A stretch of 64,000 nucleotides of DNA from an uncultured virus (IMG/VR IMGVR_UViG_3300025174_000006) (Duplodnaviria; Heunggongvirae; Uroviricota; Caudoviricetes), in the IMG/VR virus record IMGVR_UViG_3300025174_000006. The stretch is one strand, 5' to 3'. A model generated the notes under the pieces. It saw nothing but the letters and a program-made list of their open reading frames with translations, was not told the origin of the DNA and searched no databases. Of the stretch, positions 11,125 through 50,705 are shown one piece after another (position 1 is the first letter of the stretch; every line of letters starts with the position of its first letter). Made by a program: the position numbers and the translations under genes.

Positions 11125-11207
11125 GATATACGTAAAATCCAATTGAATTTCTGTCACGAAAAAGAATTAAATTAGTGACAGGATTTTAGATTTATATTTC
11201 GTATATC
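11125..11207. repeat. double-dyad element copy 1
   Basis: GATATACG-N19-TGTCAC-N17-GTGACA-N19-CGTATATC. Confidence 0.9.
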
Positions 11208-11328
11208 AATAATTTTTAAAAAACGGTTTGAGAAACGCCAGGTCAAAAAAAATCCCTGGCAGAAATTACCAGAGAAAAAGTATCATATATCAGGATTTTA
11301 CATTTAGATTAGTATGAGTATCAGGATT

Positions 11329-11811
11329 TTACGCTCTTGAGTCGAGTTCCTTTTTAATTTTAGCAGCTTCTTCGAAGGCTTCAGTTGAGACCATTATGTT
11401 CATGTGACGTATTAGTTTGTCTGTGGAAATGTTTTTATAATCAAATGCGTTGATTTGTAATTGGTCGGTATCACGATATAATAGATTATCTATTTCATTA
11501 TCTTCCGGGTCTTCGTCATCATAATACTCATCTTCTTCGCTTCCATCTTTAGAAGGTTCACCTGGTTGTAATCCAAAGTTTATCTCCTTCATACCTATAT
11601 CTATAAGTATTTGGCGTCCTAATTGTGGTTCTTTATTATATTCGTATGTAGACTCAGCGAGTTCAGAAAAACCTTCCGGAAGTATTCCGTCAGCTATTCC
11701 GGATTCGTCTGATAGGCATCCTTGGGAATCGTAATAGGTACGTGGAGTGATTAGAAAAAAATAATCTCCATCATTATTTGATAATTGAAAATAAAAATCT
11801 GATGCTTTCAT
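11329..11811 (-). CDS. acidic protein with a C-terminal UvrB/C-like (UVR) motif
   Basis: ends EAFEEAAKIKKEL. Confidence 0.6.
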   Translation of the reverse strand: MKASDFYFQLSNNDGDYFFLITPRTYYDSQGCLSDESGIADGILPEGFSELAESTYEYNKEPQLGRQILIDIGMKEINFGLQPGEPSKDGSEEDEYYDDEDPEDNEIDNLLYRDTDQLQINAFDYKNISTDKLIRHMNIMVSTEAFEEAAKIKKELDSRA

Positions 11812-11817
11812 GTAAGA

Positions 11818-12156
11818 TTAAACGGAAAATCCTGCAATTTGTTTCTTTAGCTTTTCCTCTCCCTTAGTTTTAATATCGCTTCTCCCTATAAATTTCCTAT
11901 TAGTCATTGTTTTATTTTCTTTCTTTTCAGATTGTGTAACTTTTTTGCTTGGAGTGAGGTTGTTATTAAACTTATCTTCTGCAGGCGTTTCTGGTTTATG
12001 TTTCTTATTATCAATGATATAACAGTCCCAACAACAGTATAAGTTTCTCCCTGATTTAACCGGTTTTCCACAAGCTGAATTGTGACAGGTTGGAATTATT
12101 TTGTCTAATGCTTTCTTATATTTTTTTGAGTTCTTCTGTTTGGTTTTGGTTTCCAT
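11818..12156 (-). CDS. basic hypothetical protein with a Cys cluster
   Basis: CHNSACGK...YCCWDC. Confidence 0.55.
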   Translation of the reverse strand: METKTKQKNSKKYKKALDKIIPTCHNSACGKPVKSGRNLYCCWDCYIIDNKKHKPETPAEDKFNNNLTPSKKVTQSEKKENKTMTNRKFIGRSDIKTKGEEKLKKQIAGFSV

Positions 12157-13099
12157 TGTCGGTGGTAATAATTGGTTTTTTGGTTATATTAAATAGGAAC
12201 TTGGTAAAGTTTTCCATGTCTGTCCCATTACATTTTTCTATAGTATCATCTATTGAGTGACAGATTCTCCATGTGTCATGTTTTTTCATATCGTATTCAG
12301 GAAGGATTCCTATACAAAGTACTGGATATTTGTATCTACGAAATGCGATAGCATCACTTGGTGGGGTTCTTAATTTTTGGATGTTATGTCCTAGGGTTGT
12401 TTCTAATGAGATATGAAGCTCGTCTTCTGATTTATTTTTCTCACAGTCTGACCAGATTATTGTCCCGTTACCGGTAAGCTCTAAATTAATAACAGCGGAT
12501 ATTTCTCCGTATATTTCATGAGAAATGTTTCTACTTCCTTTTATAGATGAAGATTTTTTAGCGAATCTGTTGGCTCCTTTTGCACTTATCTCTTCGGAAT
12601 CTGAGAAAAGTATAATGGTTCTTTGATGTTCATCTTTGGATGTTTTAATTAGAGATGAGAGCCTGAGAAGATTACAGACGCTGGCAGAATTGTCTTGTGC
12701 GTTTTGGCTATGAACGTTCATGACGTCATGGTGTGCACAAAAAACAATAGCTGGACCGGTTACTTGAGGATTTGGTTCAGCAATTATATTAACAAGCTTG
12801 TGACTCGAGTAGCTACTATTTCCCCAAGTGATGTCGTTCCCTCCTTGGGCTTCGAAAATATCTAATGAGTATTTTACACCAAGTTTGTTAAGTGTGTCTA
12901 TAATATACATCGCACGGTTAGTTATAGGATTGGGCTGAGGTATATTAGCAGAATAAAGATTATGAACTGATGATAAGTCAACCAAAAATTCATATGATGT
13001 GTTAGATTTCTCGAGTGCAGCTAATTGCTGGAGAAAAAACAGATTTCTCCAGTTTTCTTCGAATTCATAATCATCATATTTATATTCCTGGTCTTTCAT
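12116..13099 (-). CDS. M28-family Zn peptidase
   Basis: AHHD, AQDNSASV, DSEE, NLE and C-terminal CHS.DD motifs. Confidence 0.8.
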   Translation of the reverse strand: MKDQEYKYDDYEFEENWRNLFFLQQLAALEKSNTSYEFLVDLSSVHNLYSANIPQPNPITNRAMYIIDTLNKLGVKYSLDIFEAQGGNDITWGNSSYSSHKLVNIIAEPNPQVTGPAIVFCAHHDVMNVHSQNAQDNSASVCNLLRLSSLIKTSKDEHQRTIILFSDSEEISAKGANRFAKKSSSIKGSRNISHEIYGEISAVINLELTGNGTIIWSDCEKNKSEDELHISLETTLGHNIQKLRTPPSDAIAFRRYKYPVLCIGILPEYDMKKHDTWRICHSIDDTIEKCNGTDMENFTKFLFNITKKPIITTDNGNQNQTEELKKI

Positions 13100-13184
13100 A
13101 CGTTTGCAAATGTAGTAAATAATTATTTAGTTTAAACAAAAAGTCCAGTGATTATAATTTTTCACTGGACTTTCGTAGGGAGAA

Positions 13185-13496
13185 TTAATCCTTCATCTTT
13201 TTGACTTTAACCTTTTCTTCGTCATCGTCATTTAAATAATCTTCCGCATCTTCGGTGTCATGACCATGTTTGTTCAGGCAGAAGAATTCTGGACCAGAAC
13301 CAACTGCGAATAATCTTTCTACACAGGTTTTTACATCCATTATTTCACTATCTGTTGTGATTGTAACGTCTCCAACATTATGACCTTCAGTTATGTCATA
13401 ATTGATTTTTTCAAGGTCAGTTGAAGAATAAGGCTCCTCAGATAAAATTTCAATTTGAACTACCGTCCGGTAGAATTTACGTTTACTTAATGACAT
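13185..13496 (-). CDS. hypothetical protein, paralogue of 31652-31903
   Basis: shares YRTVxQxEILSEEP. Confidence 0.65.
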   Translation of the reverse strand: MSLSKRKFYRTVVQIEILSEEPYSSTDLEKINYDITEGHNVGDVTITTDSEIMDVKTCVERLFAVGSGPEFFCLNKHGHDTEDAEDYLNDDDEEKVKVKKMKD

Positions 13497-13521
13497 GATG
13501 TTTTGTTTATTTGTGTTTAAT

Positions 13522-15908: not shown

Positions 15909-15913
15909 TGTGT

Positions 15914-18052: not shown

Positions 18053-18141
18053 TGATTTATAATGTACTATACAGAATTTAATTGATAGGTGTTACAAAAA
18101 CAGAAAACAAACATATCTGGTGTAAAATCCTAAAGCAAATA

Positions 18142-18222
18142 TATATACGCAAATTAAAACTATATTTCTGTCACTAATTAATTCTTTTCGTGACAGGAAA
18201 TGAATTGGATTTTACGTATATC
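18142..18222. repeat. double-dyad element copy 2, reversed arm order
   Basis: TATATACG-N19-TGTCAC-N15-GTGACA-N19-CGTATATC. Confidence 0.9.
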
Positions 18223-18340
18223 CTTATTAGGTAAAATCCTTCAGCTGGTGCCTGCTGGCCAGGGATTTGGATTTGAGTTAAAAAGAAAAGAGCCGAACAT
18301 TTAATGCCCGGCTCTAAGCTCGTCGTGTTTAAATAGGATT

Positions 18341-22582: not shown

Positions 22583-23798
22583 AGGATATAATTTTAGTTT
22601 GTGTTATAATGTACTATACCAAGAAAAATTGAGCTACGTTACAAAATCAATCATCATTTTCAACTTCTTCTTCACCTGTTTCCCATTCTTTTTCTGTGAT
22701 GATATATCCAAAACGATTAACATAATGAAATCCTGCAGAAATAATAAGTTTGCCATCTACATCTAAAATAGTCCAAACACGTTTTTTGGTTTTTTCATCT
22801 TGTGCCATTTTAAGGATATATGCTTCTTCCTCTCTATAAGTTTCATACATTGTTCCACCAAAAGAACAAACATCTTCATCTTTAATTAAAATGTTGGTTT
22901 CAGCTCTAATAATATGATTTATTTGAGGCTTATACTCTTTGTAAAAAACTTCGTCTTTTATTTTCTTTATCTTTTTCATGATTTTGTAATTTTTTATTAT
23001 TGCACTATACAAAAAATTAAATTCCTGTGTTACAAAAAGAAACTTCACACTCTATCTTGCAGATTTTGGATTAGTTCTTCTAAAATAAACTGCTCCTTAT
23101 ATGGCATTTCAGAATCAACGTTCTTAGCTTCTTTTTTGATTTCTTTACAAACTTGAGATGCAATTTTTGCTACAACTTCCTTAAATTCGGGATACCTTTC
23201 AAGACCAATTAAGGGTTTGACTTTATAGTAGTTATCATTAACATATTTAAGGTCATCTTCATAACTGATAGAAACAATCGCTTTCATGTAGGGACTATAT
23301 GCTAAATTGCCGACTTTGATTTTTGAATAATCATCTTTTTCAATCTTGTATTTGACGTTATTATAAGTTGCTGTTTCCATTTTGTTTTTGGTTTATAATG
23401 TACTATACCAATTTTAATTTAATCGCGTTACACTTTTAAATATGTTTCTCCGCATTTTCTCTATTCTTGAAATAAACAGTATCCATTGTTCCTGCAAAAG
23501 GGTTTTGTTCTTTTATAGTAAATGCTTTATCTCCAGCTTCAATTGAAATTCCTGTGTCTTTAAATAAAAACAAGCCTGCTTCATCTTTCCCGATGGTTAC
23601 TTCCTTAACTTTTTCTCCTGTGATTTTCATACTGTTTAATTAAATTATGTTTATATTTTTTCATGTTATATTGGTTGTTGGTTTGTGATGTGATATTTTG
23701 TTTGTTATAATGTACTATACAAATTTTAATTCTTTTGTGTTACAAAGAAGGCGGATGTGGCGTCACAGGCTGGTTTCAGGCGATTTTTTGATTTATTA

Positions 23799-23880
23799 GA
23801 TATACGTAAAATCCAATTCAATTTTTGTCACAAACTTAATTCTTTTTGTGACAGAATTTCAGATTTATGTTTCGTATATC
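23799..23880. repeat. double-dyad element copy 3
   Basis: same box spacing. Confidence 0.9.
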
Positions 23881-24012
23881 CAAATAAAAATTAAATCCTA
23901 CTTTAGGAGCCCTGGGAAATTCTGAAGCTCCGGTGCTTCAGAATCAGGATTTTACGCAAACAAAAAGCCCAGGAATTTTCCCGGGCTTCGTGTGAAATGT
24001 AAAAATATATCT

Positions 24013-28944: not shown

Positions 28945-29232
28945 ATTTTAACATATTTGTTAATTGAGCCATTTCATCTTCTGATAGAAAATTATAATCA
29001 GTAATCCCGTTAAGTTCTCTATCTAAATAGATTTTGCGTTTCAAGTTATCAACAAACCACTTAAAGCCATTTATATTTACCTCTATAAGTCTTTTCTTTA
29101 TTTGTTCTTTTTCTGTCATATTGTACTATACAATAAATTAAAACACTACGTTACAATTTTTAAACTTGAGGCCACCGGGATTAAATCCGGGCCAGCCAGG
29201 AGGCTCCCAATACCCATTTTTTTAATTTTTTA

Positions 29233-29313
29233 GATATACGATTAATCAAAGTCAATTTATGTCACAAAGATAAATAATTTGTGACAGAAATACAGTTTTA
29301 TATTTCATATATC
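29233..29313. repeat. double-dyad element copy 4
   Basis: same spacing; ATTAATCAAAG-type left arm. Confidence 0.88.
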
Positions 29314-29579
29314 TACAAGTCAAAAAAACAGGCTTTTTCTTGCTGCTGGTTAGCCGCCATTCTGCTGCTTTTTTCTGGTTTTTTAACCAGTTGAAATTCT
29401 AATTTATCAATGTTTATAGCACTTACAGAGCTTTGTTTAGCCGCTGGTTCCTGGAAATCCTGAAGTTGGCGAGTTCTAAAAAAGAAAACCCCGGAGAATG
29501 TCCGAGGTTATTAGTGTTGATGTTAAAAAATAAAATCCACCAAACGGAAGAGCCGAAGGTGGATTTTACTTTATAATCG

Positions 29580-29676
29580 TGGAAACAAAAGGACTCGAAC
29601 CTATACATCTACTTTTTCAGGGTAGCACTCTACCGAACTTTTGACAGCTCTCCTTTCGGAGTTGAGTTACATTTCC
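29580..29676 (-). tRNA. tRNA-Phe(GAA)-like RNA with an enlarged D-loop
   Basis: acceptor GGAAATG/TGTTTCC, T-loop TTCGAGT, anticodon loop CTGAAAA; 33-nt D-loop containing CTCC-GAAA-GGAG. Confidence 0.6.
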
Positions 29677-29986
29677 TTGTTACATTATAAAACGAATATG
29701 TTTTATAATTGTTTCACAAAACTAAAAAAATTATTCTACTATTCCAAGTTTATTTAAAAAATTATTTGCGTATTCTACTGCATTTTTAATAGATGCTTGA
29801 TGGTCATCCTTGAAATCATAAGCAACGGCATCAATAGCAGAATGTATTTCATTCATTAATTCACACATCGCTTTTAAATTCTCTAATCTTTTAGCATCCA
29901 CTTCTGATTTCCCAACTGGTCTAATTTCACCAATTAGCTTTTTTACTACATCGTAATTTGTCATCGTTTTATGTTTTGAGTTTTAG

Positions 29987-31903: not shown

Positions 31904-32303
31904 GGCTGTTTTTATTTAAGTTATAATGTACTATACAAATTTTAATTTGATTGTGTTACAACTATTTTACATCAGAATAAACACATTCGTAAGAACACCC
32001 AAGTGAACTTCCACCTTCTAACATAAAACTAACTGTTAAATCTTTGTCATTATGCTTAAGAACAATAAAGTTTTCGCCGATTGTATTACCACCATATTCA
32101 ATAACTTCGTAATCATTATCATTAGCAAAATTACTAATTTCTTCATAGTTGCAAATTTGTCCTTTTTTCATAACGTTTGTTTTTGGTTGTAATGTACTAT
32201 ACGAATTTAAAACATATCGCGTTACAAAAACATAAAATAACAGGCGGATGTTTCTGGAGAAGCCCGTCGCCGGCGAGTTCTGGAGCTATTTTTGATTTTA
32301 AAA

Positions 32304-32385
32304 GATATACGTAAAATCCAACTCAATTTTTGTCACAAACTTAATTCTTTTCGTGACACAATTTCAGATTTATATTTCGTATATC
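32304..32385. repeat. double-dyad element copy 5
   Basis: same spacing. Confidence 0.9.
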
Positions 32386-32468: not shown

Positions 32469-32505
32469 AAAAAACAAAAGCCCCAACATTTCTGCCGGGG
32501 CTTTT
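32469..32505 (-). terminator. intrinsic terminator, representative of a family closing each gene block
   Basis: minus strand AAAAGCCCCGG-CAGAAATG-TTGGGGCTTTTGTTTT; related hairpins near 18280, 23958, 34993, 37295, 40441, 42305, 44142, 44893, 46343 and 48356. Confidence 0.8.
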
Positions 32506-34780
32506 CTTTAAATTTGAAACTTTACTATTCTTCACCGAATACATGACAAGCAAACGTATCAATGAACTCTTGATCGTTATAGTCGCTGAATTTATCTCCT
32601 ATGATGGTATCATCGCCTTCAAATTTGAACTGGTAATGAAATCCATTCCTCACAGTTCTTATATAGAAGTATTCTTCTCCCTTTTTGTGTTCTATGCCGT
32701 TATTTGCTTCTTTAATGGTGTAAATTCTTTCTTCACCATATTTGGTAATCTTTAAGGATTTTCCTGATAGGATAACTTTAAATCCGTTGTGGGTTATTTT
32801 GTTCATGGGAATAGGTTTTGGTTAGTTTAATTTAATACCTGATTTTTCAATTACTTCTTTTACGTTTCCGCAGGGGAACATCAAACCATTAATATTACCG
32901 TTTCTTAAAAACCTATCTAAATAATGAACTATCATTTCTAAATCGGCTCTACTGCAAGTAATACCAAGAACTTTCACTCCCCTGTATTCACTGTTGTCAA
33001 TTATGTTTTGAACTTTTGCTTTTAAAGCTGTTGCCTTGTTTTTCATGGTGTTTTGTTTTGGTTATAATGTACTATACCAAAAATTAAAACACGGTGTTAC
33101 AAATAAAGGGAGAATAAACGAAGAAAGTCCGAAAAGGGTTTTGTTATTCCCTGTCGGACTTTCTATATGTTGAGCCTTAGCTCTTGTGGCTTATAGCCTA
33201 TGTTTTATTTTTTTCTTTCCGGGGCAGTTAATTTAACAATAAAATGATTGCGATAAACCAAATTTGTTTGGTAAAACGTGCCGGGTAATTGTTTCAATAG
33301 TTTCATTATATAAGTAATTCGGGATTACGCTGCATAAATCCACGTCACGCTCTCTCCGTATTCCTTTACATATAACCATTTCATTTCTTTTTTCCGAGTT
33401 TCTCGCTACGATTCCAAGATTTTCTTCGTTGAATACTTCCGAAGCAACTATTGAAATTCCTAAAATATTCGCAGGTAATTCAATATTAACAATAGAAGTT
33501 TCAAAAATTAGAGGTTGTCCTCTTGCTGATTTTCCATGCTCTGTAATTCTCGGAGCAGTTACCGCCGACAATGTAAAAATAATTTGCGTCAGCATAAAAA
33601 TTAAGCCAATTCGTTTCATGTGTTTTAGTCCTCCTTTGTTTTAATGGTTAATACTACTTTACTACTTGCCTGAGCTTGCGCCTCAAGTTCCTTTGCGTGG
33701 AAATGATACATTTCACATTCGCGATTCATAATCTCTTTTTGCTCCTTCATGCTTTTTTGATTATTTTAAGTTTATTTATAATGTACTATACCAAAATTAA
33801 AAGACAGGTGTTACACTTTTAAAACAATTTATTGTACTTATTTTCGTAGGTAACAGGGAGAACTATCTCTCTTTCAAAAACATCAAACCACGTAGTATCA
33901 GATAATTCATGAAAATCGCCATCTCCAGTAATTTCGTCAATCACTTTTAAATCTTCTTCAAGCACTTCTGCGTTTTTAGTACCTTCGTGTATTATATCAA
34001 CAACGGATTTTACTTCGGCTTTAACTTCTTCAATACTATTATGAACAGTTAAGCCGTGTTCGCCTGATTTGTGGCTCATAAAAAGAATAAATACCTTTTT
34101 CATTTTGTTTGGTTTTAGTTATAAGCAAAATTTCTGTTTTTATTGATAGCGATGGTCATCAGAACAATTTTTTCAGTAAAGTGCATTTTATATTTTTGTT
34201 CTAATAATGTACCTTCTGAATCAATCACTTCCAATTCTTTTTTATCATTCAAATTTTCAGCAGTTGCATATCTTTCGTTTATTTTTTTAAACTCTTCTAA
34301 TAGTTTCGCTTCTTTTTCAACAATTTTAACTATTTTTGCTTCTAAATTTTGTCCGTTGAGTAGCATGATGTTTTAGATTTAGTTGGTTTATAATGTGATA
34401 CTTTGTTGTTTGCAATGTACTATACCAAAAGAAATTGTATTGCGTTACAACTTTATTGAACTATGTTACACAAATACAATATTATGTTTCTTTGCCCAAG
34501 ACTTAGCACGTTGTTCTGCCTTATCTATTTCAGAAGTAAAGCATTTAATAAATCCCCAAGCCTGTCCTACTGGAACAATTCTTGACCGTTGAACATTCCA
34601 CATTCCACCTCTCCAATGAATATAATCAGTAAGAAGGTAATACTTTTGAACTTTGATTTCTGTTTTCGTTTCCATAATGTACTATACAAAAAAGAATTTA
34701 ATCGCGTTACAGAAATATTAGAATAGTTGGCGGATGTTTCTGGAGGAGAAGCCCGTCCAGTAAGGATTTAAACAGATTTT

Positions 34781-34862
34781 GATATACGTAAAATCCAATT
34801 AAATTCCTGTCACGAAAAGAATTTAATTAGTGACAGGATTTCGGATTTATATTTCGTATATC
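34781..34862. repeat. double-dyad element copy 6
   Basis: same spacing. Confidence 0.9.
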
Positions 34863-34900
34863 TATTTTAAAATAAAATTCATCAGCTGGTCGCCGGCTCC

Positions 34901-34991
34901 TGGGATTTTTCGGGATTTTTCGGGATTTGTCAGGATTCGTCGGGATTTTTCGGGATTCGTCGGGATTTTACGGGATTCATCAGGATTTTAC
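34901..34991 (+). repeat. 10-bp tandem repeat, about 9 units
   Basis: CGGGATTTTT variants ending in CAGGATTTTAC. Confidence 0.9.
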
Positions 34992-35440
34992 CAAAAACAA
35001 AAAAGCCACACATTTCTGCATGGCTCTTTAAATAAAATTTGCTCAACTTATAACTACGCTTGATTCCCCTTAATTGTTGTGACTCGTTCGGGTATTGTAT
35101 CTGGTTTCAATGCGTTTATATTTATTTGTGTATCTGTTGCTTGGATAAATTCTTTTTTAAGGTCAGCCCAAAATCCAATTCTTTCAATTTCTAACATAAT
35201 ATGTTTTTTTAAATAAATATGATTGATTTTAACGTGTATAAATTAAACCATCATTTTTTGCCTTAAGACGTTCTTTCATGCTTCCATCTTTCTTTAGACA
35301 TTCTTCAACTGGAAAATCCCGATAATGTGTTGCGCCTTCTCCAAACTTAATTTCCAATGCCGTTGGCTTTCTATGGTACGTTAATTCTTTTATATTCCTT
35401 TCTGCAAAAATTTCTTTGTCGGTAGGAAGTGCTTTCTTTT

Positions 35441-35671: not shown

Positions 35672-37126
35672 GACATTTTATTTTGGTTATAATGTACTAT
35701 ACAAAAAATTAAATTGTTGCGTTACAACTTCGTTGGGTTTCACCACAGATTTTTACCCTACCTGTTTTACTTTACCACACTCTTTGCAAATCCAATGATG
35801 TTTATCGCACACTTCTGATACACCATCATCAACGTATATAGCCTTAGTATCACACTCACATTTACACCAAAAATCATCGCTTTCTTCATTTATCTCTTCG
35901 ATTTGTTCTTTAGCATCGCGTTCCTTTTGTAAATTTTTAATAACTTTCCCATCACGAACTTCAAGCGGCCATCCGTATTTAATAAAATCTTTCCCTTTAA
36001 TGTTTGTTTCATTGGTTCTACGAACTCCTTTTTTGTGAGTTATGTTATCTCTTGTCCGAGAATGTGAGCCGGAAGTTTCGCCAAAGTGTTTTTTGTCTTT
36101 ATGCTTTTTGCGGTCTTTAGCAGTGTACTCTTCTCCCTTATATTTTTTTTTTGTCTTGCTCATTTGATTTCAGTTTTACCATTAATGTTAATTACAATGT
36201 ACTATACGAACTTTAATTCTTTTGCGTTACAACTTCGTTGAACTTCGTTACAAGTTATACCATTTCTTCCACATTTGCACCTAATTCTGCTAATACATTT
36301 GAAACGCTAATCATTCTTACTGTGTCTGTTTCAGAAATACACTCGGTGTCAATTTTGTGATAAGCAACTTCAAGAAGGGTTCCGATTTCATCTACATGGT
36401 CTTCTTCTACATACAAAGACGCTGATTCCTTCATTTGAATTCTTTCAGCTTCATTGCTCGTAAAGTAGTCAATAAAATTCTCAATTATCATTAACTTAAA
36501 TTCATCTGTTTTTTTCATGGCTTTATTGTTTGGTTGATTAATTTTTACTTCTCCAGATTTTTATTGCATCTTTTATAGAGTAAAACAAAAATTTTTTCCC
36601 TTGAATGTTAACAACTCCATTACTGTATTTATAAGCATAAACGCCATTTCTAACTTTTGTTTTACTGATTGGGGTTGCGAATAAGTCAGGTTGCATTTGC
36701 TTTTAAGTTTTGGTTTGTAATGTACTATACAAAATTAAATAATATTACGTTACACTTTGCCACAATTCTTTAATTCAGTTTCAGTAGCTATTTTGAATAA
36801 CTCCCAAAACTGTTTGCTTTCCAATAAACACAACTGAATAACACCAAATAACTCCAACATGGTTTTCCGATTATCTCTTTCATTCCATTCTAAAAGATAA
36901 TAATAACATCGTGCAGGAACTTCTATATCATCTAAGCATTTTTTCATAATGTACTGCCGTTAGGCGTATGTTATTTATAACGTACTATACGAAAAAGAAT
37001 TGAGCCATGTTACACGTTACGGGTGCGTTTAGGATTTTACAACAATTAATTGCATCTAACGGATGGCGGATATACGCAGTTTTGCAGCGTTTTGCAGCGA
37101 AAATTTAAGTGATTTTAAAACTAAAA

Positions 37127-37208
37127 GATATACGTAAAATCCAATTCAATTTGTGTCACGAATTTAATTCTTTTCGTGACATAATCTCATTTTTATATTT
37201 CGTATATC
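37127..37208. repeat. double-dyad element copy 7
   Basis: same spacing. Confidence 0.9.
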
Positions 37209-38080
37209 AAAATCAAAGTAAAATTCCACTGCGGAGCCTCCAGGAAATCTAAAGTTCCGGTGCTTCAGAACTTTGGGCATCAGGATTTTACCACAAAACA
37301 AAAACCCCAACATTTCTGCCGGGGCTTTTTTATTAATCTTTTATCTAATATATAAGTAATCATTATTATAAATTACCTCTTGGGGGCATCTCTTGTCCGA
37401 TTCATCTCGTCTGAGTTTAAGGGTTAATACTAATTAACGCGAATAATGTGTTTAGCTACCAATTCAGCTACAATTACGCTGTTTATTTTTTGTATTGCTT
37501 GGTCTATTGTAAGTCCTAAAAGCAACCATTGTTTTAAGTCCATGTGATTTAATATTAAAGTTAACGTTTGAGTTTATAAATTGCGATTTCCACAAGTACA
37601 ACAATATTTTGCTATCATTAACCTGTTAGTTTTGCAATGATTACAGTAGTGGTTGATTTTTGCTACAACGTATTTTACTTCTGCATTGACAACTTTTGAT
37701 TTGGATTTTATTTCTGTCGTTTCCATGACTTTAAGTTTTGGTTTGTAATGTACTGCCTTCGGCGGCGTTCTTAACGCACTATACCAAAAGAAATTGTATT
37801 GTGTTACAAAAACGGAGTTAATCCCAATCTTTTGCAAGTTCAATGTTTTCTATTAATGTTGAATTACTTTTTAACCATTGGATAGGTTCAGGACAGTTTG
37901 GAGTTTGATCGATTACTGCAACACCATAGTATTTATTGGATTTCCAAATTTCTTTTGCTTGGTCAACTGCAGTCTTAAATGGAAGTCCAGTTGCAACTGG
38001 AACTGCTCCATGCACATCGCTTTTAAATGTGGCTATTTCAAATTTTGTTGTGGCGTTTTTCATGGTTGGTTGTTTTTTGT

Positions 38081-39180: not shown

Positions 39181-40277
39181 GGAATATGGTTTTTGGTTTG
39201 TAGTGTACTATACCAATTTTAATTTAAGGGTGTTACAGATATAATCCAATTTCTTTAATGTCCTTTTTCATTTGTTTTTCAAATGAAGTGCCCGAAACAT
39301 CATATTGTTCAGACTCATCATTAAGAATTGCTACTACAATTGCTTTCGGAATAAGCATTGGATTGGAATTTGGACTCCAAGCATCAATGTCTATTGCTCC
39401 ACAATTAAGAGCTTTATCAACTTTTTTCTTCGCTTGTTCAAAACTTTCTTTTAACATTTGAACTGCCAACTTTTTGATTTGAGATTTCTTTTTATTTGTC
39501 ATGATTTTTTATTTAGTTTGATAAACAATTTGGTGTACTGTTCTAACTTTACCGCTTTCGAGGATTTTACTTGAACTTTCTTCTACGAAAAACACTTTGT
39601 TTTTGAACGCTTGTTTCATTAAGTTTGCTTTTTGTCTTGCTTTGCCGATTGGAACAATACCTTTTGTCCTATCACATTTATAAGTATCAATAGGTTCTCT
39701 TTGACCACTTACTTCGTTATTGTGAGTTGAAAATATTTTATAATCTAAAGGAACAAGTATAAAATTTTCTTCTTCAACTACTTCAATGCTTTTTGTAATA
39801 TTCAAATCACATATCACATCTAAGTTCAAACTATCTAAATCTCCAAATATGTCATCAATTTCCATAGCTTTAAGTTGTTGGTTATAATGTACTATACCAA
39901 AAAAAATTGGATTGCGTTACATATCAGTTAAACATAAATGAGAATTTTTAGACAAAACGTCCTTATAAAACTCCTGCTTTTCAACAATTTCCTGTTCAAC
40001 TGTTTTTTCAGCTTCCCATATATCTATTTTTTTTGTTTGATAGTAAGAAAGTTTCCAACATTTGCGGATTCCTTTAATTGCTTCTTTTTTGTTATTAGCA
40101 TTAATGCTATAACAATTTGCACTTTCTGATAAATAATACTTATATCTTTTCATAATGTACTATACAAGAAAAAAACGAATTTCGTTACAACTTCGTTGGG
40201 TTACACCACAAATATCCGTGCATAAAAACTGGGACTCCAGCCGGCGTACATCTCTGGCGTAAAAATCCTAAATATTT

Positions 40278-40359
40278 GATATACGTAAAATCCAATTCAA
40301 TTTCTGTCACGAATTAATTTATTTTTGTGACAGGATTTCACTTTTATATTTCGTATATC
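40278..40359. repeat. double-dyad element copy 8
   Basis: same spacing. Confidence 0.9.
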
Positions 40360-41580
40360 CTTATCCGGTAAAATCCTCTAGCTGGCCACCGCCTGGGGAA
40401 TTTTTTTCAAGCTCTTACTTTGGGCATCAGGATTTTACACAAAACAAAAAGCCCCAACATTTCTGTTGAGGCCTTTGTCAATAAGTTCACTCCGTATTAC
40501 TCCGCAGTGCCTATTCGAGGAAAATGGTGCGCCATATCCCTATATTAAAAAAACTTAATTTCTGATTTTGGAAAATTATATTTAATACCTTGAACAATAG
40601 TTAAGTGAATAACCGCATAATCTCCATTCATATACTCTATAAGCTGTCCTACTTTTATGGCTGGACAACCAATAGTATTAACACGAAATAAATCCCATCT
40701 GTTGTTTATTTGTCCGAAATTATCTTCTTGTGTAGTTGGTTTACTCGCACAATTAAATTCATTATTTTGTATTTTTACAACTTTTTTATCTGTGTTCATG
40801 GCTTTGGGTTTTGTTATGTCGTACTATACAAAAGAAATTAAAACTACGTTACAACTCCGTTGAACTTTGTTACACATAAAACGCTTTAACACTCATATTA
40901 AAATATTTAATTTTTGATACAGGTTCAAACAAATCATTAATGATTATTTTATCTACAATAGGAATAGATTTGATTTTCAGACTCGTACTTTCTCCATAGG
41001 CTTCGATTTCTACTTCTCTACGCATTATCTTTACATTTACAAACCCTGCTGAATACACTTTTTTAAAACCTTTAGCTACTTGTTTGTGAATTGTGTTTTC
41101 ATTAAATAATATAGCACCGCTGTCAGTAATTATGTATTTGAATATTGGCATAGATACACTCTTAATTCATTGAATATTTTATATGGGTTTCTGGATATAG
41201 ATTTTTATCACCTAACCACACATACAAAACTATCCACGAAGGGAATTTCTTTAATTCATAATTTAAAATAGGTTGAAAGCATTTCAAATTAGCCCTCATG
41301 TCTAACCATTCATTTTCAATATAACCTCTGAATTTTATGTTTTTATTTTCCATCACTTAAATGTTGGTTGTAATGTACTATACGAAAAAGAATAGAGCTA
41401 TGTTACAACTCATCATCTTTAGATTTGTGTTTTGTTTTTCTACTATGTTTAGTTCCGCTACACATATAACAGCTACAAGGCTTACCCTGCTCTTTATATT
41501 CATAGTGTTCTTTAGGATTTAAGCCTAATTCGTTACACCTCTTCTTCTGTTTTAGTTTAGATATCTCTTGTCGTCTTGCC

Positions 41581-41736: not shown

Positions 41737-42114
41737 TATGATTTGATTAATTTGCACAAAGTTTATCTTGGTCTTTAACACTTATTTTTATTCCAGTACT
41801 CAACATTTGCTTATAAGAGTTAATAATATCTCTTTGATTTTCTATCGTTTGTCTTTGAAATTCTGATGAACTTTCTTTAAGGTAGTACGCTTTTCTCCAA
41901 TTAATAACATTTTTAATCAAACGAACAATAAGAAGCATTGCCATTCCTAATAAAATTGCGAGTATCATTGTGGTTGTTGTCATAGTTTTAAATTATTGGT
42001 TATTGTACTATACAAATATAAATAGTATTACGTTACGAAAAATCAGAATAACATGGCGGATGTTTCTGGAGAAGCCCGTCGCCGGCGAGTTCTGGAGCTA
42101 TTTTTGATTTATTA

Positions 42115-42196
42115 GATATACGTTTAATCAAAGCCAATTTGTGTCACGAAAAGAATTTAATTAGTGACAGGATTTCGGGTTTAAATTTCGTATATC
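42115..42196. repeat. double-dyad element copy 9
   Basis: same spacing. Confidence 0.9.
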
Positions 42197-42365
42197 TAAA
42201 TTAAAAGAAAAATCCTGTTCTGGAGCCTCCTGGCCGGATTTCCTTCAGCTTCAGTTTCTTGCGGTGAATGGGTTAGTTTAACTCCGCAAAAGTGCGTCGA
42301 ACAGAAAACAAAAAACCCCCGCATTTCTGCAAAGGGCTTTCTGAACCAACCAATAAATTAAAAAG

Positions 42366-42438
42366 TGGAAAGGGTAGGAATTGAACCCACGACACGAGTG
42401 CTTTCGACACCCTGCTCTACCAACTGAGCTACCTCACC
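42366..42438 (-). tRNA. tRNA-Phe(GAA)-like gene with a non-canonical anticodon loop
   Basis: GGTGAGGTAGCTCAGTTGGTAGAGCA-GGGTG-TCGAAAG-CACTC...GGTTCAATTCC. Confidence 0.72.
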
Positions 42439-43822: not shown

Positions 43823-43952
43823 AATGTACTATACGAAATATAATTTATATTTGTTACAAAGTTAATATTAAATAATTGCAAATGAAACAGTTAAAACAAA
43901 ACGAGAACTACTGGAGAAGCTCCGTCGAGCTGGTTCTAAATTATTTATTCGA

Positions 43953-44034
43953 GATATACGTAAAATCCAACTCAATTTGTGTCACGAATTAAATTATTTT
44001 CGTGACAGGATTTCGCTTTTATATTTCGTATATC
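43953..44034. repeat. double-dyad element copy 10
   Basis: same spacing. Confidence 0.9.
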
Positions 44035-44698
44035 CTTATCTGGTAAAAATCCACGAGCTGGACGCCTGGCCAGGAATTTCCTTCAGCTCCTCCGGGGTAA
44101 ACTATATTTTGGCACCAGTTTCAATCTGCTGTCGAATTATAGAAAACAAAAAACCCCTGCATTTCTGCAAGGGCTTCTCGTACCAACCAACCAATAATTT
44201 ACATTTTCGCCTTCTCAATGGCTTTTACAATATCTTTTATTCCAATGTTTTGAGTTTTGCTTGCATATAAATAACTTTGAATGTATGCTTCCGAGTAACC
44301 TGTTTTTACCATTGCTTTAGCTTTTAATTCTAAAGGTGGTATTTCATACATTTGGGCACGTTGCTTATCTCTTAAAATTTGCAAGTTGCGTTCAGCTTCT
44401 TTGATTTCACTTTTTAATGGATTTTTCATAGTTACATTTGTTTTTCAGTACTTACAATAACGGAATTTCCATCTTCTTTACAAAGTAGTGTTCCTTCAAT
44501 TTGAACATTAACACAACCTTTTTCAGATAGTTGTTCTAATTCAAAAATTAGTTTGTTTATGTTTATCGTTTCCATTGTGTTTAATTGTTGGTTATAATGT
44601 ACTATACCAAAAATAAAATTACTGCGTTACAATAATATATCCCGTGCATAAAACTGGGACTCCAGCCGGCGAGCTCTGGTGTAAAATCCTAAATTTAT

Positions 44699-44780
44699 AA
44701 TATACACTTAATCAAACTCAATTTGTGTCACAAAATAAATTCTTTTCGTGACAAACTATCACTTTTAGTTTGCGTATATC
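44699..44780. repeat. double-dyad element copy 11
   Basis: left box degenerate (AATATACA). Confidence 0.85.
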
Positions 44781-45460
44781 TCCCTAAGGTAAAATACACC
44801 ACCGGCCAGCCTGCTGAGCCCAGGAATTTTTCAGGAATAGGCATCAGGATTTCATTTTGGCTTTAAGTGGGTCAAAAACATGAGTTATGGCCAAAAACAA
44901 AAAACCCCTGCATTTCTGCAAGGGCTTTCTGAACCGAACCAACCAATGTATTATATTTCTCTTCGTATTTCTCTGCGTGATTCTAATATTTTTGAATTGG
45001 GATACCAAAAACTTTGCTTGTGTATTTGAGAGTACCCTTTCTCCCCCGTGAAATAATCAACCCAAAATGCGAACAGTTCTATTTCGCCATTCTTGTCCTC
45101 TGTCAGCAACAATGTCCTTGATAACTCTTTTAACTGTGCAAATCTTTTCATTGCCCAATCTCCATAACTGAATCGGTCTTTCCAAAAATGATATGCGACC
45201 TCTCTCCCTCATTGTTCATCAACAGCACGATGTAGGATTTTACGTTCATTTTCCTCATTTTTGAAAACATAGGGAAAGTTAGCTAATATGTAGGGAGTGC
45301 TTAGTATCATTATATTTTTTGAGATTTCGGGTGTTTTATTTTTTTGTTTTTCAACAAAGTCTGATAAGCCTTACCATACTTATCGTTTGAATACTTACCA
45401 CGACTAACTTTTTCTTTTTCTGCTTTCATAATGTACTATACAAGTTTTAATTCTTCTGCG

Positions 45461-46045: not shown

Positions 46046-46189
46046 AACGATTGGTTTATTTGGTTAATGTACTATACGATATTAAATCATATCGCGTTAC
46101 AACTTCGTTGACTATACCACAAATATTCTATGCAGGAAAACTGGGACTCCAGCCGGCGTGAGGCTCTGGCGTAAAATCCTGAAGTATTT

Positions 46190-46272
46190 GATATACGATT
46201 AATCAAAGTCAATTTGTGTCACAAATTTAAATTCTTTTTGTGACAGGAAATCAATTGGATTTTACGTATATC
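46190..46272. repeat. double-dyad element copy 12, hybrid arm pairing
   Basis: ATTAATCAAAG-type left arm with a GGATTTTA-type right arm. Confidence 0.9.
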
Positions 46273-47739
46273 TTTTCAAAGTAAAATCCACCGCCGGCCA
46301 GCCGCTGAGCCCAGGGATTTTTCCTCCGGGGGAGAGAATCCCAAAAACAAAAACCCTCACATTTCTGCGAGGGCTTTCCAAACCAACCAATTGGTATAGG
46401 GCAATACATTACTGCAAGACTACAAACCCCTATCTTTGAGTGAAAACATCTACACGTAGCTATGCAAATTCATGTTTTCATACTATCTTAAATATCTATT
46501 TGTGCTTTTTCTTTTCACGCTGTTCTTTTTCATACTTTTGAACTCTTATTTTTTCTTCACGAGTTAGCGGAATTTTACCTGCCGTTTGTTTATATAATAA
46601 ATCACTCAAGTAAGGAAAATCAGCTTGTCTTTGCAGTTTACTTTTGCCGTCATGTATTCTATAACTGTATTCTCTCATTATTTTAAATTTTATTTATTAA
46701 ATCAAAAATGTGAACTAAATTTCCTTTGTGCTTTCCACTTACGATTTCATAAAACGCATCGTTGTACCTTTTAGCTTTTTCGGTTAGGATTTTACCCTCA
46801 CTCCAAAATTTGATTTCTTTTGCTTCTGCTAATGTCTGAATTTCAGATTTCACATAAGGATTTTTACCGCAGTGGATACAACTCATAGTTTTAAATTTAA
46901 TTGGTTATATTGTACTATACAAGTTTTAATCCTCTTGCGTTACAGATTTATGCTCTTTATATCTTTTATTTGCTTCTAATACCTCAATAATAGTTTCTTC
47001 TACATCAGCGTAAGTGAGTTTTGTTATTTTAGCGTAAAATTCAAAAGGTGTCCGTAAGTAAGCCAATGCAGTTACCAATCTCGTAGCCGAACCGAAGCAA
47101 CCAATATTTATGTGTTACAAATTCGCTTTCTGATAGGATTTTACTTCAAAGTCAGTAGCAACACGAATGTCATCATCGTCATTTATTAAATGTGATATCG
47201 AACCGTATTGACAAATAACACCTTGCCAAACTATAATGGCGAACGAATAAAAAGAGTTTTTGTTGTTCATAGTTTTAATTTTTAGAATCAATGTAAATTA
47301 CTATTGCCATATAAGGAATAAGTATTCCAAACATTAAGTACCAATTCGGCTTAGATAAAATTCCAATCAACATAGGAATGAAATAATAAATAGCAAGTCT
47401 GAATATCGTTTTTAATACCATAATATGTGATAGATTGGGATACCATAATCGTATCCGATTATTATTATAATTTTTTTTCATGTTTTTGATTGTTTTAGTT
47501 ATTACCAATACTTTACTACAAAATGCGTTATAACATAAGTGACTGAAATAATACCAAGTAATCCAATTGCCATAACAATAACTATTGGTAAATATATTTG
47601 GATTTTACAGACAATTCTCACTATTCTCATTTGAATGTTTGTAAGTTTCTTTCCTGATTTGTAATTAAATAAATTCATGGAGTTGGTTGTTGGTTACAAT
47701 GTACTATACGAAATATTAAATTCCTATGTTACAACTATT

Positions 47740-48090: not shown

Positions 48091-48210
48091 ATCTTTATAG
48101 TTGTTGGTTATTGTACTATACGAAAAAGAATTGAATCATGTTACAAGGGAGAACACACCGTGCGAGAAAACTGGAGTACCAGATCGCCGAGGGTGAGCCT
48201 GAGAATTTAA

Positions 48211-48292
48211 GATATACGCTTAATCAATACCAATTTGTGTCACTAATTAAATTATTTTCGTGACAGGATTTTAGGTTTAAATTTCGTATATT
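48211..48292. repeat. double-dyad element copy 13
   Basis: same spacing. Confidence 0.88.
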
Positions 48293-48416
48293 AATATGCG
48301 ATGCACTCCGGGGAGAGTCGCCTCTGAGGTGGAGCTATTTTTTTCGGATTTGTAGAAAACAAAAAAGGCAACCCGATTTTCGGATTGCCTTTTGTTTTGC
48401 ATAAGGGAGAGAGTGA

Positions 48417-49004: not shown

Positions 49005-49122
49005 GTTTTCTAAGTTTAGTTGGTTTCTATATTGTACTATACGAAAAAAAATATATCCATGTTACAAAACTGAAAAAGTTTTTATCGACCGAAAAATCCT
49101 GGAAATCTGTGCTTTTCTTTAT

Positions 49123-49205
49123 AATATACGTAAAATCCAACTCATTTCCTGTCACTAATTTTAATTATTTTCGTGACAGAATATTAGATTTATGTTTCGT
49201 ATATC
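49123..49205. repeat. double-dyad element copy 14
   Basis: same spacing; at the strand-switch point. Confidence 0.88.
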
Positions 49206-49486: not shown

Positions 49487-49813
49487 ATGAATTTATTGAA
49501 TGTAATTTATTCAAAAAACACCTACAAAAAAGCAATCTGTAAAGGTTGTAGCAATAAACTAATTGAAGGCAGTACAATTCTTTCGATAGTACGTACACAA
49601 GGTCGTTTTACATCGGTCAGCAACTATTGTCAAAAATGTGCAGAAAAAGAACTGCAGGATGCTTTGAATGAAGTTTTACCATTGGCACAACGAATAATAA
49701 AAATCCAAGAAACATTGGATAATGACTTAATAATGGCAAAAAAGATTGAAGGGATAGCAAAGGAAGCTATGGAAAAATATGATACCACTATGAAAAAATT
49801 GGGTAACGAGTAA
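49487..49813 (+). CDS. Zn-ribbon-like hypothetical protein
   Basis: CKGC...YCQKC; forward promoter near 49434. Confidence 0.65.
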   Translation: MNLLNVIYSKNTYKKAICKGCSNKLIEGSTILSIVRTQGRFTSVSNYCQKCAEKELQDALNEVLPLAQRIIKIQETLDNDLIMAKKIEGIAKEAMEKYDTTMKKLGNE

Positions 49814-49892
49814 TCAACATACGAAAGTTCATAACTTTAATGAAATTTTATAAATCTGTAACATAGTTCTTTTTAAATTTGTATAGCACAAT

Positions 49893-50255
49893 ATGGAAAC
49901 AAAGACATTAGATAACCTAAAAGACTTACATTCAAAATTGGAAGTTGTTTTTAAAGCCGAAAATGAAGCTATAAAGACAAAACAAAAAGATGTGTTAAGT
50001 GAACAACTTAAATTACAAGTCAATTTAATATATGACTTTGTAAAAGAAAACAACTTAATACTTGTTGAATTAAACACTGCTTGGGTGGAAAAAAATGAAG
50101 CTCGTAGAACTATATATAACCCAAAAACTTTAGAACATAAAAGTTTTAAAAATTTATCCGATAAAGACTTTGTAAACAAATTCAATAAAGGAAAAAATAA
50201 TTGTTTATTTGTACATAGCACATTTTGGGGTATGGATTATATGTTAATAATGTAG
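49893..50255 (+). CDS. hypothetical protein, probably leaderless
   Basis: GTATAGCACAAT-ATG. Confidence 0.65.
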   Translation: METKTLDNLKDLHSKLEVVFKAENEAIKTKQKDVLSEQLKLQVNLIYDFVKENNLILVELNTAWVEKNEARRTIYNPKTLEHKSFKNLSDKDFVNKFNKGKNNCLFVHSTFWGMDYMLIM

Positions 50256-50319
50256 CTGTATTTTGTAACACCGGAATTTTATATTTTGTATAGTATATTA
50301 GAAACAAAAACTTAAAGCC

Positions 50320-50493
50320 ATGATAATTTTATACTACTACTTTAATCCAAATCAAATAGAATTTCTTAACCTCAAAAACCTAAACACCATGAAACAACAA
50401 CTCGCAGTAATCGCAAACAATCTTACCAAAATGGAACGTTACGAACAAATGGAACGCATCGCGCAGAATCTACTTGATATGGAAATCGAGTAG
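50320..50493 (+). CDS. small protein (57 aa, or 34 aa from an internal ATG)
   Basis: follows the promoter near 50264; followed by a terminator. Confidence 0.5.
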   Translation: MIILYYYFNPNQIEFLNLKNLNTMKQQLAVIANNLTKMERYEQMERIAQNLLDMEIE

Positions 50494-50517
50494 AATAGTT
50501 TTAAACATTGTTAGAGG

Positions 50518-50546
50518 AAAAGCACGGACATCATCCGTGCTTTTTT
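50518..50546 (+). terminator. intrinsic terminator
   Basis: AAAAGCACGGA-CATCA-TCCGTGCTTTTTT. Confidence 0.85.
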
Positions 50547-50621
50547 CGTATGCAATAAATCGAGATGGCGTAATGGCACATCCGGTCGCCGGGGCTGGAA
50601 AAGTTTTATACATTATCTTTT

Positions 50622-50705
50622 GATATACGAAAGATAAAACTAAAATCCTGTCACTAATTTTAATTATATTTCGTGACAGGAAATGAATTGGATTTTACGT
50701 ATATC
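50622..50705. repeat. double-dyad element copy 15, reversed arm order
   Basis: GATATACG-N19-TGTCAC-N18-GTGACA-N19-CGTATATC. Confidence 0.9.

Follow-up and report, generated by a model that had tools for sequence, protein, structure and literature searches.

A four-box repeated element between terminators and ECF-type promoters of an uncultured jumbo phage: a putative protein-binding site at operon boundaries

In T4-like phages, units made of a stem-loop terminator and an early promoter, called PeSLs, are described in hyperplastic genome regions (PMC2839356, PMC4122927), with promoters of a host sigma-70-like type (PMC2839356). A related arrangement is found in a stretch of 64,000 nucleotides (the window in what follows) from an uncultured virus of the Caudoviricetes (IMG/VR record IMGVR_UViG_3300025174_000006), in which an element with four conserved boxes occurs fifteen times between positions 11,125 and 50,705. 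As in PeSLs, repeated intergenic units of terminator plus promoter flank small open reading frames (ORFs) of the ORFan kind in a plastic region, and the copies are exchange points between otherwise unrelated sequences. PeSLs are depicted there as compact units of about 100 bp with no extra dyad, whereas here a four-box 82-bp element with GC-rich shoulders is lodged between terminator and promoter, which lie 170–330 bp apart, and is present at only 14 of the 57–70 promoters. The PeSL promoter is of the host sigma-70 type, while the present promoters are of the extracytoplasmic function (ECF) type and presumably read by a SigW-like phage sigma factor. Mini-circles are reported to form from PeSLs; here there is past exchange, with no circles in the contigs of four sequencing runs, a material in which rare forms are invisible. 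The element extends the known phage PeSL-type terminator/promoter cassettes. We tentatively read it as a duplex protein-binding site at operon boundaries, which would consist of two promoter-derived halves facing outward and would act on the transcription of the flanking genes.

Sets of dispersed operators, such as the stoperators of mycobacteriophage L5, the conserved inverted repeats of phiC31 and the KorB operators of RK2, offer a second comparison. There too, one protein-binding word is repeated in many intergenic copies serving many units, some of them at a variable distance from the promoter. Those sites are single words of 13–17 bp with a known repressor, whereas the present one is an 82-bp composite with a putative reader, and its copies all lie at a terminator/promoter boundary. 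The bacterial interspersed mosaic elements (BIMEs) and repetitive extragenic palindromes (REPs) of enterobacteria are likewise intergenic, often placed behind terminators and assembled as mosaics of motif types around a linker, and they have also been proposed as docking sites for proteins (gyrase, IHF). REPs are, however, GC-rich hairpin palindromes spread over the chromosome, while the present element is AT-rich, has unpaired arms and is restricted to one 40-kb phage region.

The fifteen-copy pattern is genuine and far from random. The window corresponds to bases 43,060–107,059 of a 212,632-bp virus record of about 30% G+C, and all 15 start coordinates given in the original prediction are indeed occupied by an element of the layout GATATACG-N19-TGTCAC-N15-18-GTGACA-N19-CGTATATC. 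The half pattern GATATACG-N15-25-TGTCAC-N10-25-GTGACA has 25 matches in the window and none in 100 dinucleotide shuffles, and GATATACG alone has 27 matches for 0.82 expected. The claimed conservation of the boxes and of the 19-bp arm length is borne out: the inner box TGTCAC is perfect in 30/30 halves, the outer box GATATACG in 25/30 (one or two changes being found at 18142 left, 29233 right, 44699 left, 48211 right and 49123 left), and the arm length is invariant. GTGACA-N19-CGTATAT is exact in 28 of the 30 halves and is found at no other spacing from 10 to 30. The profile scan of the whole genome that had been suggested was run with nhmmer on the full record; it returned these 15 copies and no more (E <= 7e-9, the next match having E = 0.09), and a half-site profile detected no isolated halves in the same record.

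Two copies are 81 bp long, nine 82 bp, three 83 bp and one 84 bp, with AT-rich centres of 15 nt (n = 2), 16 nt (n = 9), 17 nt (n = 3) or 18 nt (n = 1), which vary between copies in sequence, orientation and length. The inner dyad spans 27–30 bp, and its exact midpoint falls between AA and TT in 8 of the 9 copies with a 16-nt centre. As had been noted, the arms are not self-complementary, but they are not arbitrary either, since three conserved sequence types can be distinguished: A (TAAAATCCAATTCAATTT), B (AAATATAAATCTGAAATCC) and C (ATTAATCAAAGTCAATTT, which is A-like). Relative to local transcription, B lies upstream and A or C downstream in 13 of the 15 copies, including 50622, which is flipped along with its + strand unit. 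The exceptions are 18142, the sole copy whose arm polarity is inverted relative to transcription, and 46190, with A-class arms on both sides. The fifteen copies are as follows.

11125..11207, − strand: element 1, 83 bp; on the − strand B arm, centre with its T-rich side last, A' arm
18142..18222, + strand: element 2, 81 bp; A..B' on the − strand; left outer box TATATACG
23799..23880, − strand: element 3, 82 bp, B..A'
29233..29313, − strand: element 4, 81 bp, B..C'; one degenerate outer box CATATATC
32304..32385, − strand: element 5, 82 bp, B..A'
34781..34862, − strand: element 6, 82 bp, B..A'
37127..37208, − strand: element 7, 82 bp, B..A'
40278..40359, − strand: element 8, 82 bp, B..A'
42115..42196, − strand: element 9, 82 bp, B..C'
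43953..44034, − strand: element 10, 82 bp, B..A'
44699..44780, − strand: element 11, 82 bp, B..C'; one degenerate outer box AATATACA
46190..46272, strand undefined: element 12, 83 bp, A..C' on the − strand; both arms of A/C class
48211..48292, − strand: element 13, 82 bp, B..C'; one outer box AATATACG
49123..49205, − strand: element 14, 83 bp, B..A'; between divergent units with promoters at 49035 (−) and 49435 (+)
50622..50705, + strand: element 15, 84 bp, B..A' on the + strand, matching local transcription

Each half of the element looks like a stretched variant of the promoters among which it is found. These promoters have the form TGTAAC-N17-[CTG]GTATAGTAC, or in a longer version TTGTAAC-N17-[CTG]GTATAGTACATTAT, and number 57 by the strict pattern (55 on the − strand) or 69–70 by a looser one; 46 of the 57 lie within window 11,048–50,295, where each gene block has its own. 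The ECF (group 4) consensus is TGAAAC-N16-CGTA for SigW of B. subtilis and TGTAAC-N17-CGAC for SigX, and the 57–70 phage promoters fit this type. The halves are built from almost the same two boxes, with order and orientation unchanged, but they differ from SigW/SigX promoters in having GAC for AAC and a spacer 3 bp longer, in being arranged as divergent pairs, and in having no gene directly downstream. Written side by side, the half read outward is GTGACA-N19-CGTATATC and the promoter GTAACA-N16-[CTG]GTATAGTAC: the half has G instead of A in the AAC core and T instead of G following GTATA, and its spacer is exactly 3 bp longer. These three differences (A/G in the upstream box, G/T in the downstream box, 3 bp in the spacer) are fully coupled. 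Genome-wide, GTAAC-N18-GTATAG occurs in 69 copies (plus one at N17) and GTGAC-N21-GTATAT in 29, which are 29 of the 30 halves, with no hybrid of box or spacing between the two classes. Conservation ends sharply at the outer box, whereas true promoters remain conserved through ACATTAT. The halves were also compared with the ECF promoter form (AAC at −35, CGT at −10, 16–17 nt apart) and do not fit it, their pattern being GTGAC-N21-GTATAT. Conserved boxes at a fixed distance within each half, together with a variable centre and thus a loose distance between halves, are the pattern expected of rigid bipartite half-sites, loosely coupled, for a rigid two-part reader. Sigma factors are the textbook example of such readers.

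The phage encodes a sigma factor of 368 aa (genome 6960–8066) in which only the Sigma70_r2 and r4_2 domains are recognised, behind an N-terminal extension of about 185 aa. Its top NCBIfam match is SigW and it passes the ECF superfamily cut-off. This protein presumably reads the TGTAAC-N17-CGTA promoters, as suggested by the co-occurrence of both in two relatives, G001 (363 kb) and G002 (299 kb), which are distant jumbo phages reached through a common GP88-family gene and have only 26 of 365 ORFs in common with this phage. A sigma homologue (28–30% identity) lies inside the promoter-dense region of each, and exact TGTAAC-N16/17-CGTATAA sequences are present in 50 and 29 copies in the two relatives. 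The N-terminal domain of the sigma factor has no match to any known family; a single other homologue of the extension (45% identity, on a 4.3-kb contig) was found in a collection of 5.8 billion proteins, and one weak stand-alone paralogue is encoded two genes away (genome 8672–9058).

Almost every gene of window 8–50 kb is on the − strand, and element 15 (50622) is located at the switch from leftward to rightward genes. Terminators were predicted by a heuristic (GC stem plus T run), and on this map the proposed succession of genes, terminator, flank, element, flank, promoter and genes proved correct for the − strand: the gene end is followed by the terminator, often by GTAAAATCCTGA, then by a GC-rich stretch, the element, a second GC-rich stretch, the promoter and the next genes. 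A terminator was found for 14 of the 15 elements; it lies on the − strand, 38–170 bp upstream, for 13 of them, while 50622 instead comes after a + strand terminator. Of the − strand terminators in window 5–52.5 kb, 13 out of 14 are then followed by an element. A conserved promoter lies 46–113 bp downstream of 14/15 elements. At least one GC-rich island (>=60% GC over 30 nt) is present within about 60 bp of 12/15 elements, and 22 of the 83 such islands of the genome are located beside elements. Promoters are about three times as frequent as elements, and the latter mark operon boundaries only. The predicted terminators are these.

11245..11275, − strand: terminator of element 1, GC stem and T run
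18282..18314, − strand: terminator of element 2, GC stem and T run
23959..23986, − strand: terminator of element 3, GC stem and T run
29481..29507, − strand: terminator of element 4, GC stem and T run
32472..32501, − strand: terminator of element 5, GC stem and T run
34997..35024, − strand: terminator of element 6, GC stem and T run
37297..37324, − strand: terminator of element 7, GC stem and T run
40443..40472, − strand: terminator of element 8, GC stem and T run
42308..42335, − strand: terminator of element 9, preceded by tRNA-Phe 42365-42438
44146..44173, − strand: terminator of element 10, GC stem and T run
44897..44924, − strand: terminator of element 11, GC stem and T run
46346..46373, − strand: terminator of element 12, GC stem and T run
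48359..48389, − strand: terminator of element 13, with a + strand prediction too (48367-48397)
50522..50548, + strand: terminator upstream of element 15, for the + strand unit, GC stem and T run

The promoters that follow the elements have the coordinates below.

11048..11078, − strand: ECF-type promoter TGTAAC-N17-CGTATAGTA, 46 bp downstream of element 1
18065..18095, − strand: promoter 46 bp downstream of element 2
23713..23743, − strand: promoter 55 bp downstream of element 3
29124..29154, − strand: promoter 78 bp downstream of element 4
32195..32225, − strand: promoter 78 bp downstream of element 5
34680..34710, − strand: promoter 70 bp downstream of element 6
36983..37013, − strand: promoter 113 bp downstream of element 7
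40158..40188, − strand: promoter 89 bp downstream of element 8
42006..42036, − strand: promoter 78 bp downstream of element 9
43827..43857, − strand: promoter 95 bp downstream of element 10
44600..44630, − strand: promoter 68 bp downstream of element 11
46070..46100, − strand: promoter 89 bp downstream of element 12
48114..48144, − strand: promoter 66 bp downstream of element 13
49035..49065, − strand: promoter 57 bp downstream of element 14

Other sequences share these gaps. The 9-mer GTAAAATCC (extended form GTAAAATCCT[GA]) has 86 copies in the genome for about 2.5 expected; it is present after 9/15 terminators, beside several elements, and as the core of arm A. Twelve copies in both orientations fill a non-coding stretch of about 900 bp (window 6016–6927, with another copy at 7491), an iteron-like array that may be an origin or an array of regulator sites. 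About 8 units of (g/c)(t/g)aaaatccc(g)a are repeated in tandem at window 34875–35000 (−), between the terminator and element 34781. Two tRNA-Phe(GAA) genes (window 29986–30060 and 42365–42438, −) are each located near an operon 3' end, just before the terminator and element of one subtype (B / T-rich centre / C'); a possible degenerate tRNA scores 24 bits, under the gathering score, at window 29580–29653 (−), and a PheRS alpha-like protein is encoded in the phage genome. Restriction sites (CTGGAG/CTGAAG) were considered for the GC-rich shoulders and dropped, such sites being common genome-wide.

The original preference for a duplex protein site over a hairpin agrees with the folding analyses. 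In the consensus fold of the 15 copies, pairing is confined to the invariant boxes, whose pairs are uninformative for or against a structure, and the arms are inconsistent; a compensatory change is seen in 1/18 predicted pairs, in one sequence only. Folds of the single-stranded DNA are weak (−7.9 to −15.4 kcal/mol, z-scores −1.8 to −5), their energy coming mainly from the boxes and their arm pairing differing from copy to copy. A search of Rfam 15 at the gathering score matched only the two tRNA-Phe genes and none of the elements, and at E <= 1 over window 28.8–51.3 kb no match fell on any element. Because the arms are unpaired and there is no real covariation, a site read in duplex DNA is preferred.

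The element is confined to this phage in all the collections that were searched. Megablast of 20 kb against 50,697 phage records, from which the phage's own record may be absent, gave no match. In IMG/VR, the 20-base element pattern had 0 matches, the 14-base half pattern single chance matches only, and the 17-base promoter pattern 8 matches, all in one homologous coding sequence. A 26-base pattern retrieved only this phage from the JGI metagenomes (its own record, a second, 100%-identical contig and a 1.5-kb piece), and the 20-base pattern had 3 isolated matches in unrelated metagenome-assembled genomes, which is chance level for the 185,579 prokaryote genomes scanned. A search for relatives based on the sigma factor found 1 locus, of 28% identity and without the motifs; the GP88-based search found 35 loci, with the promoter type in only 2 and the element in none. 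Neither a profile search of the 20-kb loci of G001 and G002 nor the scan for the two bipartite classes revealed the element, the promoter class alone being present, and a de novo dyad scan of both full records was negative while its positive control worked. In these two relatives the terminator hairpins abut the next promoter directly, so that the element with its GC-rich shoulders looks like a lineage-specific insertion into a simpler PeSL-like arrangement. G001 has repeats of its own: the palindrome TTTTTAATTAAAAA occurs many times (L188 1207–2794 and throughout), often inside promoter spacers; an 81-nt repeat bearing an ACAGTA..TACTGT dyad is present in triplicate, and the hairpin AAGGTCCGC in eight identical copies.

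From these data we infer protein binding, the kind of protein and an effect on transcription in the following terms. A sequence-specific protein would bind double-stranded DNA and mark the boundary of successive units in this ORFan-rich, early-type region. Its site would consist of two back-to-back, outward-facing bipartite half-sites in which GTGACA and CGTATATC are held exactly 19 bp apart; a two-part reader would recognise each half as one rigid unit, and the halves would be only loosely coupled across the 15–18-bp centre. Since the half is a discrete promoter variant, this reader may be related to the phage sigma–RNA polymerase holoenzyme or compete with it, or it may be a dedicated regulator evolved on promoter-derived DNA. 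Placed between the terminator and the leading promoter, the bound complex could act on about 14 operons at once, controlling or insulating them, for example by switching them off or on in concert or by preventing read-through and interference. The 15 near-identical copies would, as a by-product, provide homology patches for the exchange of flanking modules.

Several points weigh against this reading. No second sigma paralogue was detected in the genome, and 85 of the 95 ORFs in the element region belong to no PHROG family. The distance from element to promoter ranges from 46 to 113 bp, hence there is no helical phasing; the element accompanies only 14 of 57–70 promoters and is thus not needed for promoter function; and it is absent from two relatives that have the sigma factor and the promoters, so it is not a conserved part of that system. 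None of the approximately 20 runs listed for the phage is RNA. Recombination between direct repeats could have passed on the polarity bias, which would then need no function, and the halves could be real promoters for an unrecognised factor.

In this last case, which we hold to be unlikely, the halves would be second-class promoters for an unrecognised phage factor or a modified holoenzyme, and the element a divergent promoter pair, one member firing into the next operon before the main promoter and the other back at the terminator, with short antisense RNAs. This would account for a bipartite geometry as strict as that of true promoters (28–29 of 30 halves versus 69 of 70), for boxes that are near-copies of the −35 and −10 boxes, and for an AT-rich centre in the place of an upstream element. 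A spacing that varies from one pair of halves to the next is nothing unusual for back-to-back promoters, and for at least one of the upstream terminators there is a + strand prediction as well (48367–48397, overlapping that of element 13). However, with GAC in place of the AAC core that is typical of ECF promoters and a spacer 3 bp longer, reading by the same sigma factor is improbable, and genome scans found no second one. The end of conservation at the outer box is unlike true promoters, and G.U pairs in the terminator stems favour function on the − strand only.

The gaps carry clear traces of past exchange. No relationship links the genes of one block with those of another, apart from three weak paralogue sets within the region, and the repeated gaps are therefore not remnants of segmental duplication. 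Some pairs have in common the upstream flank and the element, the alignment ending at the downstream edge (for example 32304/37127), others the element and the downstream flank, the alignment starting at the upstream edge (for example 44699/48211 and 32304/42115). The best partners of 32304 are 37127 upstream and 42115 downstream, and those of 40278 are 37127 upstream and 46190 downstream. Similarity matrices of upstream and downstream flanks show no correlation (r = 0.11, permutation p = 0.2). For upstream family and centre orientation (the upstream families being only softly separated) all four combinations are present, in violation of the four-gamete test, and the same holds for centre orientation and arm type (A or C) and for arm type and downstream family. 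Flanks, arms and centres have thus been reassorted, which points to exchange or gene conversion at or near each conserved box over evolutionary time. This mosaicism fits general recombination between dispersed repeats, for which a dedicated enzyme is not required.

The element might then have no dedicated reader at all and be part of a PeSL-like cassette, serving mainly as homology for the general recombination of ORFan cassettes. A mosaic of modules with break points at the element edges is what such a role would leave behind, as are the violated four-gamete test, flank families that assort independently and unrelated block genes in an ORFan-rich region, and PeSLs set a precedent (PMC2839356, PMC4122927). 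This is still not a likely account of the element, as it leaves unexplained the perfect 6–8-bp boxes held at a fixed 19 bp beside variable arms and centres, as well as the strict association with terminators. Dispersed homology is moreover already supplied by the 57–70 promoters, and the relatives manage with a terminator abutting the promoter, without the element.

The original prediction went further and proposed a recombination site that shuffles cassettes; its part about past exchange is supported by the flanks and the four-gamete test, and no sign was found of a dedicated site-specific reaction. Its remark that no cognate recombinase is visible is true of the window, but the genome encodes two recombinases, neither of them tied to the element. 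The first is a generic Xer-like tyrosine recombinase of 285 aa (genome 9998–10855), 44 kb away and under every equivalog cut-off; against the integron integrase model TIGR02249 it is matched in two stretches and reaches 165.8 bits for a cut-off of 265. The second, the only serine recombinase of the genome, is an IS607-family transposase of 199 aa (165.9 bits against a cut-off of 110, full-length). It lies beside a 578-aa ORF in an insertion-sequence-like unit, here in a jumbo phage (genome 116690–119026, L122:9631–11967), and a 518-aa paralogue of that ORF (genome 112086–113642) has a TnpB-related domain. No element boxes are present in the IS607-like unit (genome 116.7–119.0 kb) or its flanks.

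A site at which the Xer-like or another recombinase would excise, insert or invert cassettes, in analogy with integrons or shufflons, is quite unlikely. An Xer-like protein is encoded, the 27–30-bp inner dyad with AA and TT meeting at its midpoint (8/9) does recall recombinase core sites, in particular res site I or hix of serine recombinases with their central AT, and sub-modules are reassorted at the boxes with centre orientation uncoupled from the arms. No cognate resolvase or invertase was found in the genome, however, and strand exchange by a tyrosine recombinase should not proceed between centres of unequal sequence and length: Xer/dif sites have two 11-bp arms and a central region of 6–8 bp that is identical in partner sites, whereas only the outer 6 bp are conserved here. 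Integron attC sites form an imperfect hairpin with RYYYAAC/GTTRRRY boxes, while here the arms are unpaired and the boxes differ; integron cassettes are promoterless and depend on one common promoter, whereas here there are 46 promoters and every block has its own. The distance and low scores of the Xer-like protein, and the lack of boxes around the IS607 transposase, count further against such a site.

The population data are weak, as they consist of assembled contigs of 4 runs placed on 20 kb. No rearrangement junctions or circles were seen at the elements in these contigs, where rare forms would be invisible. All joints are short-sided (20–43 letters), and their extra letters match the flanks of outside copies, which is cross-mapping between paralogous copies; longer contigs from independent runs span elements 37127, 43953, 46190 and 48211 in window order. 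In another sample, a second metagenome contig (209,885 bp) shows 100% identity across the 22 kb compared and has the same element order. Among the few early genes common with the relatives, three are in the same order in G001 and two in G002, and two are elsewhere or inverted. A 1,540-bp contig from another sample has a 35-bp deletion at window 33987–34021, overlapping a GTAAAATCC motif, and ends 60 bp beyond element 34781. It is highly doubtful that a phage-borne cassette system uses the elements for exchange, with a dedicated recombinase, for which the Xer-like protein (9998–10855) is the only candidate in view, excising, inserting or inverting self-contained cassettes that each carry their own promoters and terminator; if true, such a cassette-exchange platform would be distinct from integrons and shufflons, and the reassortment of flanks, arms and centres would be accounted for.

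A role in genome organisation, as a ParB-like centromere or condensation site, a fork or supercoiling barrier, or a pause site in injection or packaging, is very unlikely. The clustering of the copies in 40 kb beside the iteron-like GTAAAATCC array (window 6016–6927) would suit it, as would a ParB-like protein encoded by the phage (PHROG, 1.8e-22) and a two-box composite around an AT-rich centre that recalls P1 parS. On the other hand, the ParB-like protein is matched by PHROG but not by Pfam or NCBIfam and has a homologue in G001, which lacks the element, and parS sites would have no reason to sit only in terminator–promoter gaps. A typical parS is a 16-bp palindrome, which the element is not.

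It is very improbable indeed that the element is a selfish miniature transposable element, of the MITE or REPIN type, which has settled in safe intergenic gaps: its 8-bp terminal inverted repeats GATATACG...CGTATATC, its 81–84 bp, its many copies with sharp conservation ends in a single lineage, and the IS607-family transposase and TnpB-like ORFs of the genome would agree with this, but the copies show no target-site duplications, have the same polarity relative to transcription in 13/15 cases and are found only at operon boundaries in one 40-kb region, while the ends of the IS607-like unit lack the element boxes and the arms do not form the hairpin expected of a REPIN. An action as RNA, in which a long imperfect hairpin in read-through transcripts would serve as an RNase III-type processing site or attenuator, is hardly credible, for although the boxes can pair (fold z-scores −1.8 to −5) and the position between cistrons is that of T7 RNase III sites, the element lies behind the terminator and ahead of the promoter, its arms are unpaired without covariation, Rfam has no match, and the copies include one that is inverted and another with two A-class arms.

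The phage itself has the gene content of a large lytic-type phage according to family scans, with ribonucleotide reductase, thymidylate synthase, a DnaB-like and other helicases, a ligase fragment, an endolysin, many methyltransferases and many homing endonucleases, and with T4-type capsid and terminase proteins that are matched weakly. Its record is linear according to IMG/VR, and CheckV estimates it to be 81% complete. The 209,885-bp contig begins at genome 75,286 (window 32227), 78 bp before element 32304, and this different start suggests a circular or permuted genome; were the genome a 212.6-kb circle, the far end of that contig would be near element 29233. Contig ends near elements are probably assembly breaks at repeats. 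The phage is seen in about 20 runs from soil, sediment and groundwater. Its genes lack Shine-Dalgarno sequences and several are seemingly leaderless, which hints at a Bacteroidota host.

Beyond the elements, genome 0–44 kb contains big tandem families of small paralogous genes, unlike the paralogue-poor element region; examples are nine members related to genome 31774–32199 and a six-member run at 29.1–31.1 kb. A 373-aa ORF at window 60569–61690 (−) matches the thiol-activated cytolysin domain (Pfam PF01289, 3.3e-35), an unusual cargo for a phage. Sulfur-activation genes for APS kinase, sulfotransferase and a PAPS-reductase-like protein are located at genome 151124–161458 and 199519–200370, and the same stretches also encode radical-SAM proteins and four PcfJ-like ORFs.

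Large phages are known to have their accessory early genes organised and reshuffled by repeated terminator/promoter cassettes. What is added here is a separate, rigid module at the operon boundary, whose halves are a stretched version of the phage's own ECF-sigma promoter. Its generality is limited, the phage being uncultured and the element confined to one lineage. Were the element a recombination site, it would represent a new cassette-exchange system. If a protein reads it, it would be a compact example of a sigma-bearing phage insulating or co-regulating more than 12 operons, and its halves would provide, with the promoters, related bipartite words (spacer n and n+3) with which to study discrimination by sigma-like readers.

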